Shown here piece after piece: positions 25,151 to 30,040 of a stretch of 64,000 bases of DNA. The number at the start of each line of letters is the position of its first letter. Position 1 is the first letter of the stretch. Below the pieces are notes generated by a model. That model ran no database searches, was not told where the DNA came from, and saw only the letters and a program-made list of their open reading frames with translations. The position numbers were made by a program, and so were the translations under genes. Origin of the DNA: Candidatus Bipolaricaulota bacterium (lineage in GTDB: Bacteria > Bipolaricaulota > Bipolaricaulia > UBA7950 > UBA9294); NCBI GenBank assembly GCA_041302525.1, contig JBFYQX010000005.1, positions 8,213 to 72,212 of the forward strand, written 5' to 3'.

Positions 25151-26509
25151 CTACCCCGATCCCTCTGCCGGCGCGACCTCGCGTGCGATCTCGTCGTGGT
25201 CAGGAATCAGCAACTCCGCGTCGCGCACGGCGCGGAATCCGTAGCCTCCGAACCCGATAGCCGCCTCGAGAAGTCCCGCGAGAACGAACATCAGCCCCAT
25301 GCCGGCTCCGGCGCCGCTTCCGACAAGGTGCGAGAAGGCCCGGGCCGTCGCACTCCCCGACCGCATCAGCGGCTCAAACACCCGGTCTGCGAGAGGTCCG
25401 GCGGCGAGCATGGCGATCGGCGTCGAGATCTGGGCGATCAATCGGCGCGTGGCAAACACCCGTCCCTGCTTTGACGGCGGAACCTTGACCTGCCAGATCG
25501 CCTGGTTCGACCCGTTGAGGATGGGGATGCCAAACGAGACAGCAAAGGCGCCGATCCACCAGACCATGACCGCCTGGCCGATCCCGAGCGTGACGAGGCC
25601 GAACAGACCGACGAACGCCATCCCCAGGAGGACGCCATGCACTCGCTTCTTGAACCCGCCCCAGGCGGCCATGATCGCCCCGCCGGCGATGCCGCCCACG
25701 CCGAACGCCATCTGGACTGCGCCGAGCGCGATGCTGTCATTGCCTGTGCGGGCGAGGATCATCGGGGCCAGCACCGTGAACCCAAAGGCGGCCACGAAGT
25801 TGACCGCGAAGAAGACAAGCTGGAGGCCGAGAAGGCTCTTGCTCGCAAAGATGTACTTGAAGCCGAACAGGCAGTCCTGCCAGAGACTCGACGCGGCCTT
25901 GGCCTGCGGTTCCCGCGGCGGTTCGGGGATGTAGACGATCAGAAGGGCGCCGATCGCAACCGCCAGCGCCGCGAGGTCGATCAAGAAGATCCCGCGCAGC
26001 CCGATCCAGACGAAGAGCCCGCCGGCGAGCATCGGGGCCATGACGCCGGATGCCGCCTCCGCGAGGCCGAGCATTCCGTTGGCGCGCGCGTAGTGCTTCT
26101 TGTCCATCAGGGTTGATATCGCGGCCGAGTACGCCGGGAACTGGAACGATCCCAGCGCCCCGGACAGGAACCCGGTGACAAACAGGTGCCACAGCTGGAG
26201 CTGTCCGGTCAGATGGAGGACGAGCAAGGCCAGCGTGGACAACCCTGCTGCGAGGTCGCTCGCCGCCATCACGAGCTTGCGCGACACGCGGTCGACGATC
26301 GCGCCGGCCAGCGGGCTGAAGAGGACGACCGGCGCAAAGGCGAAGAAACCGACGAGGGCCAACGCGGTCGCCTTCCCCGTCAGCTCGTAGGCCCAGAGGG
26401 TGATCGCAAACTGCGTCATCCCGGTGCCGAGAAGCGAGAAGAACTGGCCGAACCAGATGATCGTGAACCCCTTGAATCCAGTGGGGCCTCGTCGTTGTCT
26501 CTGTGTCAT
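25151..26509 (-). CDS. MFS transporter (DHA3 / EntS-like), paralog of 1090-2400
   Basis: 452 aa with 12 TM segments, alignable along its full length to the first MFS (AIVDRVSRK vs AMVDRYNRK). Confidence 0.85.
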   Translation of the reverse strand: MTQRQRRGPTGFKGFTIIWFGQFFSLLGTGMTQFAITLWAYELTGKATALALVGFFAFAPVVLFSPLAGAIVDRVSRKLVMAASDLAAGLSTLALLVLHLTGQLQLWHLFVTGFLSGALGSFQFPAYSAAISTLMDKKHYARANGMLGLAEAASGVMAPMLAGGLFVWIGLRGIFLIDLAALAVAIGALLIVYIPEPPREPQAKAASSLWQDCLFGFKYIFASKSLLGLQLVFFAVNFVAAFGFTVLAPMILARTGNDSIALGAVQMAFGVGGIAGGAIMAAWGGFKKRVHGVLLGMAFVGLFGLVTLGIGQAVMVWWIGAFAVSFGIPILNGSNQAIWQVKVPPSKQGRVFATRRLIAQISTPIAMLAAGPLADRVFEPLMRSGSATARAFSHLVGSGAGAGMGLMFVLAGLLEAAIGFGGYGFRAVRDAELLIPDHDEIAREVAPAEGSG

Positions 26510-26700: not shown

Positions 26701-27513
26701 ATGGCAGGCGAGAGGAGGAGGCGCTCAGAGTCGCGTCGAGCGGAACGCCCACGTCGCTGGGCCGCGGGGGCGCCCCTCGCCGTTCTGTCGGACATTCACG
26801 GCAACCTGCGCGCCCTCGATGCGGTCCTCGGCGACATGGAACGCCGTGGGGTTCAGCGGGCCGTTCATCTTGGCGATGCCGTCTACGGGCCGCTGGACCC
26901 GCGCGGCACGGCCGCACGGCTGATCGAGCGCGACATTCCCTCCGTGCGGGGCAACGAGGACCGCCTCGTCGTCTGCCCTGAAGGCTCCGATGCAGCCGTC
27001 GACTTTGCGCGCGCCGAGCTCGGGTCGAGAGAGCTGGAATGGTTGGGCGCGCTTCCTCCCACTCTGGCCCTCGGCGAGCTATTGCTCTGCCACGGGACGC
27101 CGTGCGACGACGCGGCGTACCTCTTGCTCGACGTCGCCTCCGGAGGAGTGCGGCTGCGCCCAGACGGGGACATCCTCTCGCGCCTGGCGGGTGTGGAGCA
27201 ACCGGTCGTTCTCTGCGGTCACGACCACACGCCGAACCTGGTGCGTCTCCGCGCAGGCACGCTGATTGTCGATCCGGGGAGCGTCGGTTGCCCCGCGTAC
27301 CGCGACGATCGCCCGTTCCCGCATCGGATCGAGTGTGGATCGCCGCACGCACGCTACGCGATTCTCACGCGCTTGACCGAAGGTTGGCTGTGCGAGCACG
27401 TCGCCGTCACGTACGACTGGGATGCCGCGGCGGTCGCAGCACTTCGGAACGGAAGGCCCGATTGGGCCTTCGCGCTTGAGACCGGGCGCGCCGCTGGTCC
27501 GCCCGCGGCCTAG
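26701..27513 (+). CDS. metallophosphoesterase (calcineurin-like phosphodiesterase, YfcE-like)
   Basis: LSDIHGN, GD..D and GNED motifs. ATG at 26701 with a GGGAGGACGGC RBS. Confidence 0.8.
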   Translation: MAGERRRRSESRRAERPRRWAAGAPLAVLSDIHGNLRALDAVLGDMERRGVQRAVHLGDAVYGPLDPRGTAARLIERDIPSVRGNEDRLVVCPEGSDAAVDFARAELGSRELEWLGALPPTLALGELLLCHGTPCDDAAYLLLDVASGGVRLRPDGDILSRLAGVEQPVVLCGHDHTPNLVRLRAGTLIVDPGSVGCPAYRDDRPFPHRIECGSPHARYAILTRLTEGWLCEHVAVTYDWDAAAVAALRNGRPDWAFALETGRAAGPPAA

Positions 27514-27830
27514 CTTTCGATGCGCTCGACGAGGAACGACACTGGGCGAACGCCGTCGCTGCAACAAGGCAACGACATCCCGGGACCCACCATCCACGGC
27601 GGGTTGGCGCCATACAAGAGCATGGTGACGTCGCGTTGGATGTCCGTCCAAGCCCAATCGCATGGGAAGTCGGCCGGCTTCGCCGGGAATCCCTCGACCT
27701 CGAACGTCTGGCCCTCTCTCCACAACGGACAGACCTCCATCATGACAGGGAAGCCCTCCTTGTTCACGTACCGGTCCACGAGATCCATGTGGACCACGCG
27801 CTTGACGACCGTGATTCGCACTCTCGCCAT
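27510..27830 (-). CDS. TIGR04076-like small Cys-containing protein, 106 aa
   Basis: ATG at 27830 with an AAGGAG RBS. Pattern RVRITVVK...CP...EGQTF...CSDGVRPV recalls the TIGR04076 family. Four Cys residues. Confidence 0.6.
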   Translation of the reverse strand: MARVRITVVKRVVHMDLVDRYVNKEGFPVMMEVCPLWREGQTFEVEGFPAKPADFPCDWAWTDIQRDVTMLLYGANPPWMVGPGMSLPCCSDGVRPVSFLVERIES

Positions 27831-27955
27831 CCAGATCTCCTTGTCGGGTGGGCGGACGGCCACCCGGCGCGAGTGTAGCGTGTGCGCGGACGCAAGCGAT
27901 TCGTTTGCCCTCGCGGGCGTCTCCTATGCTAGGATGAGCCCAGGAGGTGAGCCGC

Positions 27956-28330
27956 GTGAGAGAGTTCTCCTTCATCATCGGCAACTGCCCCGGCGCGTTG
28001 GTCGAGATCGCGGAAGCGCTGGGGGAAGAGCACGTCAACATCGATGGAATCTCCGGCCAAACCGTCCTCGAGGAGGGTGTCGTCGGCATCGTGCCCGACG
28101 ATCCTGGGAAGGCGCGTAAGATTCTCCGCGACAAGGGCATCGACTTCGAGGAGCGCGAGGCCCTCGTGTTGGATCTGCCGCACCATCCGGGTGAGCTGGC
28201 CACGATCCTCGGGAGGCTCTCGGGGGAAGGGATCAACGTCTTGTCGCTCTACGCCTCGTTCGGCAAGCACCAGATCATCTTCACCGTCGACGACGTCGCC
28301 CGCGCGAAGAGCATATTCCGCATTCCCTGA
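27956..28330 (+). CDS. ACT domain-containing protein (two tandem ACT-like halves), 124 aa
   Basis: GTG at 27956, 8 nt after AGGAGG. The motif G(x)L..I...L...GINI occurs twice. Confidence 0.65.
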   Translation: MREFSFIIGNCPGALVEIAEALGEEHVNIDGISGQTVLEEGVVGIVPDDPGKARKILRDKGIDFEEREALVLDLPHHPGELATILGRLSGEGINVLSLYASFGKHQIIFTVDDVARAKSIFRIP

Positions 28331-28359
28331 GACGCCTCAGGGCGGAAGGAGAGAGGCTC

Positions 28360-28797
28360 ATGCTGTGGGTCACGCGTTCGCACGTTCACGTGGACCGGGT
28401 CGCTTGTCCGTGGCTGATTCGCCGTTTCGTCGACAGCGACGCCGAGTTCTTCTTTGTTGCCCCGAGCGAAGTGGCAGCGACGGCCGAACGCGCCGGCGCG
28501 ATCCCGTTCGACGTCCCGGGCGCCGAGCTCGGGCACCGCGACGGCGCGTGTTCGTTCGACGCCGTCATCGCTCGGTACGGGCTGAAGGACAAGGCGCTCG
28601 TGCGCATGGCGGCGATCGTCCGCGCCGCGGACACCGACCGGCTGGCGGATGAGCCCTTGGCTGCGGGGCTCGAGGCGCTCGCGACCGGATACAGCATGCG
28701 CTACCCCGACGATCTGGAGAACCTCGAGCGGCAGTTCGAGCTCTACGACGCGCTCTACGCCTGGTGCCGGCTCGACGTCGCGCGGCATGACCGGTAG
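28360..28797 (+). CDS. ChrB C-terminal-domain-like protein (chromate resistance ChrB family), 145 aa
   Basis: RBS AAGGAGAG. The N-terminal WVTRSHVHVDRVACPWLIRRFVDSDAEFFFV resembles the ChrB domain signature (recalled, not verified). Confidence 0.5.
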   Translation: MLWVTRSHVHVDRVACPWLIRRFVDSDAEFFFVAPSEVAATAERAGAIPFDVPGAELGHRDGACSFDAVIARYGLKDKALVRMAAIVRAADTDRLADEPLAAGLEALATGYSMRYPDDLENLERQFELYDALYAWCRLDVARHDR

Positions 28798-30040
28798 CCG
28801 CGGGCGCCGTGGCCTGGCCCGCGTGGCCCGGTTCTTTGGACTGCGGCGCAGCATGGTCGGCCTTCTCGGCATGGCCGTGCTCGTCGGCCTCGGCGAACAC
28901 ATGGCCGAGCAGTTCTTGCCGCTCTACCTGATCGCGCTCGGCGGCGGCTTCGTCTCGGTCGGCGCACTCAACGCAATGGACAACCTGCTCGGCGCCCTCT
29001 ACGCGTTCCCCGGCGGGTACCTGGCCGACCGGATCGGCACCAAGCGGGCGCTGTTCGTGTTCAACCTGCTGTCGATGGCCGGTTTCGCGCTGGTCATCGC
29101 CATCCCGTCGTGGATCGCGGTCGTGGCTGGGGCCGTGCTCTTCCTGTCGTGGACTGCGATCTCGTTGCCGGCCACGATGGGGCTCGTCGCGCGCGTGTTG
29201 CCGAAGGACAAGCGGACGATGGGCGTGTCGATGCACTCGCTGGTGCGTCGCGTTCCGATGGCCCTCGGGCCGGTGGTCGGCGGCGCGCTCATCGGCGCGT
29301 TCGGCGTGACCACCGGCGTGCGCGCTGCCTTTGGCGCAGCGCTGTTCTTTGCCCTGATTGCCCTCGTGCTGCAGCAGGCGCTGATCGAGCCCGACCCGCC
29401 GCGCGACGGGCGCCGCGCCCGGACGGCGGAGGGCCGGCCCTGGCGGCTGTGGCGCGCGATGCGGCCCGAGCTCAGACAACTCCTCGTTGCGGACACCCTG
29501 GTGCGGTTCTGCGAGCAGATCCCGTACGCGTTCGTCGTCGTGTGGGCCGTCGGCACGGCGACGTCGCCCGGCCCGGTGACGGCGCTGCAGTTTGGCGTCC
29601 TACGGACGATCGAGATGGTGACGGCGGTGCTGATCTACATCCCAGTCGCCTACTTCGCCGACCGCAGCCACAAGAAGCCGTTCGTCGTGCTGACGTTCGC
29701 GTTCTTCACGGCGTTCCCGCTCGTCCTCTATGTCTCGCGGTCGTTTGTCGCGCTCGCCCTGGCGTTCGTCCTCCGCGGGTTGAAGGAGTTCGGCGAGCCG
29801 ACGCGCAAGGCGCTGATCATGGACCTCGCGCCCGAAGACCGGAAGGCCGGGATGTTCGGCCTTTACTACCTCGTGCGCGACACGATCGTGTCGGTCGCCG
29901 CGTTCGGCGGCGCGCTTCTGTGGTCGGTGCGCCCGGAGGTCAACCTGTTTGTCGCCTTCGCTTTTGGGCTGGTCGGGACGGTCTGGTTCGCCTGGCGCGG
30001 CCGCGATCTTGGACCCGCGCCCGGCGCCGACGCGGCCTAA
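28787..30040 (+). CDS. MFS transporter, 417 aa, start overlapping the upstream ChrB-like stop by 11 nt
   Basis: 12 predicted TM segments. ATG at 28787 is in frame with the track ORF. An alternative start lies at 28853. Confidence 0.8.
   Translation: MTGSRGRRGLARVARFFGLRRSMVGLLGMAVLVGLGEHMAEQFLPLYLIALGGGFVSVGALNAMDNLLGALYAFPGGYLADRIGTKRALFVFNLLSMAGFALVIAIPSWIAVVAGAVLFLSWTAISLPATMGLVARVLPKDKRTMGVSMHSLVRRVPMALGPVVGGALIGAFGVTTGVRAAFGAALFFALIALVLQQALIEPDPPRDGRRARTAEGRPWRLWRAMRPELRQLLVADTLVRFCEQIPYAFVVVWAVGTATSPGPVTALQFGVLRTIEMVTAVLIYIPVAYFADRSHKKPFVVLTFAFFTAFPLVLYVSRSFVALALAFVLRGLKEFGEPTRKALIMDLAPEDRKAGMFGLYYLVRDTIVSVAAFGGALLWSVRPEVNLFVAFAFGLVGTVWFAWRGRDLGPAPGADAA

Follow-up and report, generated by a model that had tools for sequence, protein, structure and literature searches.

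A ChrF-type protein and a coupled MFS transporter as a candidate ChrA-less oxyanion cassette in a Bipolaricaulota-like anaerobe

ChrB-family accessory proteins of chromate systems have variously been called regulators, superoxide dismutases (SODs) and dispensable, and their role is unsettled. In ChrB, the regulator paired with the transporter ChrA, residues R180, R187 and H229 are needed for chromate induction in O. tritici, and a rhodanese fold has been claimed for the C terminus of the protein (PMC3817168). The chr cluster of pMOL28 runs chrB1–chrA1–SOD–chrE–ChrB_C(ChrF1)–..–MFS(ChrP) and has been reported to be chromate-induced, as has its MFS permease, ChrP (PMC2864759). There the MFS gene lies downstream of the ChrF1 gene, two small ORFs later; on a P. 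fulva plasmid (chrB–chrA–SOD–ChrB_C–MFS) it follows the ChrF gene immediately. On a Methylocystis plasmid, a rhodanese–ChrB_C fusion (‘sulfurtransferase/chromate resistance protein’) is followed directly by chrA, with a 4-nt overlap.

We analysed a 64,000-nucleotide stretch of DNA (the window, 64 kb) from a Bipolaricaulota-like anaerobe; the hosts of ChrF are metal-resistant proteobacteria. Open-reading-frame inspection and profile searches identified a gene for a TIGR04076-family protein (27510–27830, minus strand, 106 aa) that is transcribed divergently from three plus-strand genes, which encode an ACT-domain-pair protein (27956–28330, 124 aa), a ChrF-type stand-alone ChrB_C protein (28360–28797, 145 aa) and an MFS transporter of a type that we call MFS-A or type A (28787–30040, 417 aa). 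The last two are the core of the module described here. The four-gene arrangement given by the original prediction is real in its families and spacing, with small corrections to the coordinates, and the short gaps are borne out by the sequence: the ACT stop and the ChrB_C start are 29 nt apart, and the ChrB_C stop region and the MFS start share 11 nt (ATGACCGGTAG, 28787–28797, plus strand). No intrinsic-terminator-like sites were found between the ACT, ChrB_C and MFS genes, no Rfam family matched anywhere in the window and no PADLOC anti-phage defence family was matched. Unlike the ChrF loci, the window has no chrB, chrA, SOD (chrC) or rhodanese (chrE) gene, either in the neighbourhood or in the full 64 kb, and the ChrB_C gene therefore does not lie in a chr operon; genes for ChrB_N and ChrP were likewise absent from the 64 kb, in which ChrA was sought by tblastn with two ChrA proteins.

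The 145-aa protein matches Pfam ChrB_C (PF09828) at 168 bits (cutoff, 25 bits), with residues 3–136 aligned to positions 1–132 of the 132-position profile. The same profile search found no ChrB_N (PF20229), the DNA-binding half of ChrB, and ChrB_C spans the whole protein; in control runs with the same tool, ChrB1 of pMOL28 and the ChrB of a metagenome locus (L138) had both domains and ChrF1 had ChrB_C only. A resemblance of its N terminus to ChrB had been proposed: the match to the ChrB family is strong, but the entire protein corresponds to the C-terminal domain. It is 47–52% identical over its full length to ChrF proteins (C. metallidurans CH34 ChrF1 and ChrF2, and TnOtChr-type ChrF), with 52% to the ChrB_C-only protein of the P. 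fulva plasmid or transposon, versus 36–37% to the ChrB C terminus (36% for the domain shared with ChrB). Like ChrF it is a single ChrB_C domain within the range of about 140–155 aa, and it has no hydrophobic segments and so is soluble. Its closest plasmid-borne relative is the ChrB_C domain of the rhodanese fusion (57% identity), although the window protein lacks the rhodanese domain and is paired with an MFS transporter instead of ChrA. As with ChrB, its gene lies directly upstream of a transporter gene, but the protein lacks the N-terminal DNA-binding domain and the partner is not of the CHR family. These sequence comparisons identify the 145-aa protein as a stand-alone sensing domain of the ChrF type, not as ChrB.

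An AlphaFold model of this protein has a pLDDT of 90.7. Sequence searches found no solved structure for it, Foldseek returned no significant solved relative, and neither structural nor profile similarity indicated a rhodanese fold. Invariant His, Asp and Cys residues of the subfamily are H8, H10, D12, C16, D51, H59, C64, D91 and C136, of which H8, H10, C64 and C136 distinguish it from ChrF. The invariant R6, R13 and H59 align with the R180, R187 and H229 of O. tritici ChrB, a mapping made through P. fulva ChrB, the Arg pattern of which fits the published numbering at an offset of 3. Elsewhere, ChrF-type ChrB_C domains are fused to AraC-type HTH, rhodanese, LMWPc and SnoaL domains; the LMWPc family includes ArsC arsenate reductases.

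The transporter matches MFS_1 (103 bits) in two stretches that cover both halves, and a crude hydrophobicity scan gave at least seven strongly hydrophobic segments. NCBIfam yielded only weak matches to DHA-type or H+ antiporter models, there was no match to TIGR00937 or the CHR domain (ChrA controls score 217–221 bits) and sequence searches found no solved structure. Its predicted start within the ChrB_C stop region holds: ATG 28787 is supported by an 83%-identical orthologue that aligns from query residue 1, and orthologues in other species begin about 10–12 residues ahead of the conserved block, with GTG 28823 as a less likely alternative. The usual MFS starts elsewhere are 8–19 nt past the ChrB_C stop or overlap it by 11–23 nt. 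Like that of ChrP, the MFS gene comes just after a stand-alone ChrB_C gene, but its product belongs to a different subfamily: its matches to ChrP are weak and local (30% over 103 aa, E = 3e-4; about 26%, E = 1e-6 to 1e-9, for other members of the window subfamily). Type A and the ChrP type form separate clusters, and the window transporter is not a ChrP orthologue. The wiring, put forward in the original prediction as different from canonical chromate systems, is not wholly new: ChrB_C already stands with an MFS gene in pMOL28 and P. fulva, although the MFS subfamily here differs from ChrP.

We surveyed gene adjacency in 80 species loci with a close ChrB_C homologue, taken from 591 relatives. 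In 43 of the 80 species, an orthologous MFS-A gene (orthologues 58–78% identical) directly adjoins ChrB_C in the same orientation, with ChrB_C first in 36 and MFS-A first in 7; in 10 more species, from the Chloroflexota, a ChrP-type MFS (type B; 38–45% full-length identity to pMOL28 ChrP) directly follows ChrB_C. The predicted ChrB-domain–MFS pairing is therefore real and conserved, for two MFS types and in both orders. Four loci have other adjoining transporters, namely another MFS (L016), EamA (L057 and L061) and ChrA (L047), and 23 of the 80 have no transporter beside the ChrB_C gene. Some ChrB_C genes occur in unrelated contexts, for example among glycoside hydrolase or polysaccharide genes. 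Most ChrB_C–MFS junctions fall between −23 and +19 nt, and the pairwise identities among ChrB_C proteins track those among MFS-A proteins (r = 0.83; reached by 0 of 2,000 permutations). The hosts of the pair include many anaerobic bacteria from several phyla. A literature search on a described ChrB_C–MFS module, TIGR04076, PF19571 and 6MTZ found nothing relevant.

Viewed from the transporter, ChrB_C is adjacent in 10 of 57 MFS-A loci with adequate flanks (about 18%), and four MFS-A orthologues that were looked up all lacked it. ChrB_C is thus an optional accessory, and the MFS-A pump evidently works without it.

In six loci, ChrB_C homologues lie in chr-operon contexts (L015, L020, L035, L051, L138 and L168). 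In seven genome loci the pair is followed by a ChrA gene whose product passes TIGR00937, and in three a ChrE-like rhodanese is encoded downstream of the pair. One metagenome locus, L138, has the order ArsM-like methyltransferase, full ChrB, ChrB_C, MFS-A; in another, L168, the order is MFS-A, ChrB_C, ChrA.

We put the chances at about even that the functional unit is a two-gene cassette, in which a ChrF-type sensor is coupled to an MFS exporter that acts on an oxyanion; most likely, the cassette is a compact, ChrA-less variant of the chr-type oxyanion systems. The full-length ChrB_C match, the adjacency in 43 of 80 species, the tight junctions, the co-varying identities, the chr and ars contexts elsewhere, the conserved R6, R13 and H59, the domain fusions of ChrF-type ChrB_C and the confident model of a soluble protein all support it. 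In such a cassette, the cytoplasmic ligand of the ChrB_C protein would be a tetrahedral oxyanion, either chromate-like or a sulfur or metalloid relative, or else something produced by such stress; the protein would then work on the neighbouring pump, or together with it, as an accessory sensor or as a subunit that handles the substrate. Export of the compound would fall to the MFS protein, the nearest models of which are of the H+ antiporter and drug-exporter types. In the Bipolaricaulota-like lineage, the cassette sits behind a lineage-specific ACT-pair gene and is probably transcribed with it.

Several observations weigh against the cassette. The link is weak when seen from the MFS-A side, 23 of the 80 ChrB_C genes surveyed have no adjacent transporter, and no ChrB_C–transporter fusion occurs among the best 150 of 5,007 representatives, all of which are 326 aa or shorter. 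The window lacks ChrA, ChrB_N, ChrE and ChrP, and the hosts are mostly anaerobes, for which exposure to chromate is not obvious. Published genetics also assign ChrF only a small part in chromate resistance: deletion of chrF2 had no effect in C. metallidurans, and chrC and chrF gave no extra growth advantage in O. tritici (PMC2751784).

The pairing of ChrB_C with at least four transporter families, and its fusion in other proteins to AraC HTH, rhodanese and ArsC-type domains, argue that it is a portable oxyanion-sensing module. A bolder extension, which we consider improbable, is that stand-alone ChrB_C proteins are general cytoplasmic oxyanion sensors that dock onto and gate unrelated secondary transporters (two MFS subfamilies, EamA and ChrA) as post-translational sensor–pump pairs, with MFS-A a hitherto unrecognised oxyanion exporter that is widespread in anaerobic phyla and replaces ChrA. 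The MFS subfamily, which is large, highly conserved and without a name, also becomes a candidate exporter for oxyanion or metalloid stress in Bipolaricaulota, Desulfobacterota and Chloroflexota. The cassette is a concrete two-gene system that is open to testing, and it does not overturn current understanding.

Alternatively, the ChrB_C protein may be a Mn-dependent, SOD-like antioxidant enzyme, with the MFS protein merely co-expressed in a response to oxidative or metal stress, for example to export damaged metabolites or handle Mn, and neither acting on the other. O. tritici ChrF, characterised as a dimeric superoxide dismutase with about one Mn per subunit, has SOD activity, and mutants gain reactive oxygen species under chromate (PMC4779226), which counts against the cassette. 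The P. fulva relative, at 52% identity, occupies the same position in chrB–chrA–SOD–ChrB_C. The many invariant His, Asp and Cys residues would also suit an enzyme, as would E37, H38 and E41 in the first conserved block of the MFS protein. However, H8 and H10 are not kept in proteobacterial ChrF or ChrB, making a shared metal site doubtful, and the lack of a significant solved relative in Foldseek leaves the DHH link weak. Gene order and a size of about 17 kDa are the grounds for equating O. tritici ChrF with the ChrB_C-only protein, fusions to AraC HTH and ChrB_N favour a ligand-sensing domain, and repeated tight coupling to four transporter families would be unexpected for a free-standing SOD. 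We regard the enzyme explanation as unlikely.

It is also unlikely that the ChrB_C protein works through a DNA-binding regulator encoded elsewhere, which it would titrate or partner as an anti-repressor or co-sensor, and so controls expression of the MFS gene rather than the pump itself. In ChrB, a DNA-binding regulator that acts as a dimer, this domain provides the sensing half (PMC3817168), some proteins join ChrB_C to an AraC HTH, and L138 and L168 each encode a ChrB_C-only protein alongside a full ChrB, so that hetero-oligomers are conceivable. Yet the cassette in the window has no neighbouring gene for ChrB_N, AraC or any other regulator, and in O. tritici the C-terminal half of ChrB failed to regulate when on its own (PMC3817168). 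Translational coupling this tight, together with the exchange of transporter partners, indicates that the partner is the transporter.

The original prediction further joined all four genes into a single efflux module for small molecules or oxyanions, with the ACT protein as ligand sensor. Both of its additional family assignments stand. The divergent protein, which starts at an ATG preceded by AAGGAG, scores 63.9 bits against the NCBIfam TIGR04076 model (cutoff, 33), has no Pfam match and has the expected four Cys residues (C34, C57, C89 and C90). The ACT protein matches the ‘ACT domain pair’ family ACT_8 (PF19571; 45 bits, cutoff 23.5) over residues 4–124, in keeping with two ACT halves in about 125–140 aa. 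The co-directional, terminator-free spacing would suit a single module, as would the ACT–ChrB_C–MFS string, which recurs in L001–L005, L103 and L104. In L100 and L179, ACT immediately precedes MFS-A with no ChrB_C gene, which links ACT and MFS-A in part of the lineage. But none of the 80 cross-phylum ChrB_C loci has an ACT or TIGR04076 homologue, ChrB_C–MFS pairs without ACT occur within the lineage (L099, L102, L111 and L013), and more distant ACT homologues adjoin PIG-L or DUF885 genes. In L100, 1.5 kb and other ORFs separate the TIGR04076 gene from ACT, and L005 is colinear with the window over the whole 12 kb, so the string reflects relatedness, not selection. We consider the one-module explanation very doubtful, and for TIGR04076 it is already largely refuted: that gene is an unrelated divergent neighbour, outside the conserved module. 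ACT and TIGR04076 were rejected as conserved partners, as tblastn finds both near the pair in close relatives only and the ACT contexts diverge.

That ChrB_C and MFS are chance neighbours with no functional link is highly improbable: ChrB_C is missing beside most MFS-A orthologues, and glycoside hydrolase or polysaccharide genes surround some ChrB_C genes, but the adjacency seen in several phyla (43 of 80 species), the two gene orders, the near-abutting junctions and the second MFS family in 10 more species all speak against it.

The ACT gene is a lineage-specific neighbour that is probably co-transcribed with the cassette here. Its homologues occur only in Bipolaricaulota-like relatives, and the family is small, with all named members from Bipolaricaulota. 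The true start is most likely GTG 27956, which has AGGAGG 8 nt ahead of it and agrees with independent gene calls on the same DNA; the earlier GTG 27947 falls inside this ribosome-binding site. A scan for generic sigma-70 promoters called none at TGCTAGGAT (27927–27935, plus strand), a block upstream of the ACT start. The divergent intergenic region has a single operator-like repeat, a 10-nt inverted repeat at 27845–27866. TGCTAGGAT is unchanged in the window, L005 and L103 amid otherwise diverged intergenic DNA, and is possibly an extended −10-like promoter element.

We conclude that the real unit in this part of the window is probably a ChrF-like sensor protein translationally coupled to an MFS exporter, placed in this lineage behind a gene for an ACT-pair protein. 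The four genes first observed at 27510–30040 (window G+C, approximately 68%) stand as noted in ORFs and spacing, and profile searches confirm all four families. These are a TIGR04076-family protein of 106 amino acids with four Cys (27510–27830, minus strand; 63.9 bits, cutoff 33; ATG after AAGGAG) and, on the plus strand, an ACT-pair protein of 124 amino acids (27956–28330; ACT_8, 45 bits; GTG 8 nt past AGGAGG), a 145-amino-acid protein (28360–28797) that covers the entire profile of ChrB_C, the C-terminal effector-sensing domain of ChrB (168 bits), and an MFS transporter of 417 amino acids (28787–30040; MFS_1, 103 bits). The ACT gene ends 29 nt before the 145-amino-acid gene, which overlaps the MFS gene by 11 nt. 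An ACT start at 27947, given by an ORF lister, is less likely; this position falls within the ribosome-binding site AGGAGG. Identical DNA is present in the metagenome-assembled genome GCA_041302545.1, where independent gene calls on the public contig have the same four starts. For each of the three co-directional genes, the nearest named homologues belong to Candidatus Bipolaricaulota. Convergent gene ends overlap by 4 nt at 27510–27513 (metallophosphoesterase, plus strand, ending at 27513; TIGR04076, minus strand, ending at 27510) and at 30037–30040 (MFS, plus strand, ending at 30040; amidohydrolase, minus strand, ending at 30037). A second MFS gene (MFS_3/EntS-like family, 452 amino acids; 25151–26509, minus strand) lies 1.3 kb upstream of the cassette, adjoins cupin and TrpB-like PALP enzyme genes, and recurs colinearly in L005, a relative at 81% identity (L numbers denote loci of homologues).

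The overlapping MFS start was also borne out. The only in-frame starts 5′ of the conserved MFS core are ATG 28649, which lies deep within the ChrB_C gene, ATG 28787 and GTG 28823. The best-supported start is ATG 28787, with GTG 28823 as an unlikely alternative, because the 83%-identical orthologue in L179 aligns from query residue 1 and orthologues in other phyla have 10–12 residues ahead of the conserved block and start either 8–19 nt past the ChrB_C stop or with an 11–23-nt overlap.

The 145-amino-acid protein does belong to the ChrB family, but the resemblance was originally placed at its N terminus, whereas the whole protein is a complete C-terminal domain. A profile scan found no ChrB_N, the DNA-binding half, in this protein; a control scan detected both ChrB_N and ChrB_C in bona fide ChrB. 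DNA binding by O. tritici ChrB resides in its N-terminal half, whereas the chromate-responsive residues R180, R187 and H229 are located in its C-terminal half (PMC3817168). P. fulva ChrB, the arginine pattern of which matches the published O. tritici positions when shifted by 3, served as the bridge for mapping: the three residues correspond to R6, R13 and H59 in the window protein, and neither alignment shows variation at any of them. Elsewhere, ChrF-type ChrB_C domains are joined to AraC-type HTH, rhodanese, LMW phosphatase and SnoaL domains. The LMW phosphatase Pfam family includes ArsC arsenate reductases. Such fusions suggest that ChrB_C is a portable ligand-sensing module tied to oxyanion chemistry. 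Individual proteins in which ChrB_C is fused C-terminally to an AraC-type HTH, an LMW phosphatase of the ArsC-type family or a SnoaL-like domain are P0417, P0432, P0381, P0422 and P0374; the cited chromate papers make no mention of these three architectures.

Stand-alone ChrB_C proteins of about 145 amino acids form a very large family (5007 representatives at 50% clustering) that is unusually conserved, with at least 70% identity across phyla. A survey of ChrB_C loci, limited to a single genome for each species, gave 591 relatives, the 80 closest of which were analysed by tblastn with the window proteins. The module proposed in the original prediction is conserved in part: an orthologue of the window MFS (group MFS-A; 58–78% identity, about 400 amino acids) lies immediately beside ChrB_C, in the same orientation, in 43 of the 80 loci, but ACT and TIGR04076 homologues occur in none of the 80 and accompany the pair only in near relatives. 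Of these MFS genes, 38 are full length, four are ended by a contig edge and the one in L041 has decayed to a remnant. ChrB_C comes first in 36 loci and MFS in seven, all Anaerolineae; among the hosts are Desulfobacterota, Chloroflexota, Bipolaricaulota, Brocadiaceae, Sumerlaeota and others. In ten more Chloroflexota loci among the 80, a different MFS lies directly 3′ of ChrB_C; it is orthologous to ChrP of pMOL28 (38–45% identity over the full length). With a third MFS type (L016), EamA (L057 and L061) and a directly adjoining ChrA (L047), a transporter gene abuts ChrB_C in 57 of the 80 species. In pairwise comparisons, ChrB_C identity strongly tracks MFS-A identity (r = 0.83; Mantel, 0/2000), consistent with inheritance as a unit, an outcome that shared species phylogeny is equally able to produce.

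Seen from the transporter (80 MFS loci from a metagenome scan and four orthologues looked up directly), ChrB_C is the commonest neighbour family of MFS-A. Of the 57 metagenome loci in which MFS-A is flanked on each side by 500 nt or more, only 10 have ChrB_C adjacent, and the four orthologues examined directly all lack it. ChrB_C is clearly optional for MFS-A, an accessory to a core formed by the transporter. ArsM-like genes lie near MFS-A in three metagenome loci. One MFS-A orthologue without ChrB_C (L096) lies 2–4 kb downstream of a cluster encoding an ArsR-type HTH protein, CMD, the arsenite pump ACR3 and the arsenite methyltransferase ArsM (L096:1–2708).

The ACT-pair family is small (175 matches), every named member is from Bipolaricaulota, and its distant members adjoin unrelated genes. 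The entire 12-kb neighbourhood of L005 is colinear with the window, and its synteny therefore reflects relatedness. Within the lineage, all combinations occur: ACT–ChrB_C–MFS in the window, L103 and L104; ACT–MFS without ChrB_C in L100 and L179; ChrB_C–MFS without ACT in L099, L102, L111 and L013; and MFS alone in L095, L101 and L106. The ACT-pair gene and the cassette may share a transcript in this lineage, because the TGCTAGGAT block upstream of ACT is kept in three relatives (the window, L005 and L103) and no terminator-like site lies between the co-directional window genes.

Among plasmid records, the window ChrB_C protein is nearest to stand-alone or fused ChrB_C proteins rather than to the ChrB C terminus: identity is 57% to a Methylocystis rhodanese–ChrB_C fusion followed by chrA, 52% to a ChrB_C-only protein after chrB–chrA–SOD on a P. 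fulva plasmid and 47% to one after chrE on pMOL28, but just 36–37% to ChrB's own C-terminal half. From gene order and size, we infer that the plasmid ChrB_C-only proteins are ChrF/ChrF1, the latter known from the chromate operon chrIA1B1CEF1 (PMC2864759). The link between ChrB_C and MFS is already visible on these plasmids: the ChrF-like gene of P. fulva borders directly on an MFS gene, and the gene for the MFS protein ChrP, which is reported to be chromate-induced (PMC2864759), lies two small ORFs downstream of the ChrB_C-only gene of pMOL28. In seven environmental loci, ChrB_C–MFS is followed by ChrA scoring above the TIGR00937 cutoff, and in three, ChrE-like rhodaneses lie downstream; L138 has the order ArsM-like methyltransferase, full ChrB, ChrB_C, MFS-A, and L168 the order MFS-A, ChrB_C, ChrA. 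The window cassette is a stripped-down relative of these extended chr determinants, with a different MFS subfamily, because ChrA, ChrB_N, ChrE and ChrP are all absent from the 64-kb window. Stand-alone ChrB_C proteins, ChrF and the MFS ChrP are already known; a literature search found no description of the ChrB_C–MFS cassette as a recurrent unit or of the MFS-A subfamily.

The adjacency and the sensing residues are conserved, and the pair occurs in chr and ars contexts. We infer the ligand, transport direction and physical coupling: the sensor would most likely bind an oxyanion (chromate-like, sulfur or metalloid) and modulate or feed the MFS pump, the closest models of which are H+ antiporter or exporter types. 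This sensor–pump reading is weakened by the lack of a partner ChrB_C beside most orthologous pumps and by the absence of ChrB_C–transporter fusions among the best 150 of the 5007 representatives. A third weakness is the competing role suggested by published SOD activity: O. tritici ChrF has been reported to be a dimeric Mn-SOD (PMC4779226). According to genetic data, ChrF contributes little to chromate resistance (PMC2751784).

Other genes accompany the ChrB_C–MFS pair elsewhere. In nine Desulfobacterota species, a conserved protein of 94–95 amino acids (MPSIEKH..RTGK.Y.EVHEWIDDP..K.ERHD...), with no Pfam or NCBIfam match, is encoded directly 5′ on the same strand (L019:7682–7966, L051:1416–1703 and L040:7682–7987; also L037, L039, L052, L056, L065 and L067) and may be a third cassette component there. 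UPF0047/YjbQ-family genes lie directly 3′ of MFS in two Desulfobulbaceae loci (L052:3406–3846 and L056:4004–4420), and related genes are near the cassette in L015 and L036. A rhodanese–HD-domain fusion is encoded downstream of the pair at L039:10392–11930. Around L041:8555–8660, merely the last 34 or so MFS codons are left between ChrB_C and the ChrA gene, which looks like a decayed MFS within a ChrB_C–(MFS)–ChrA–rhodanese string.
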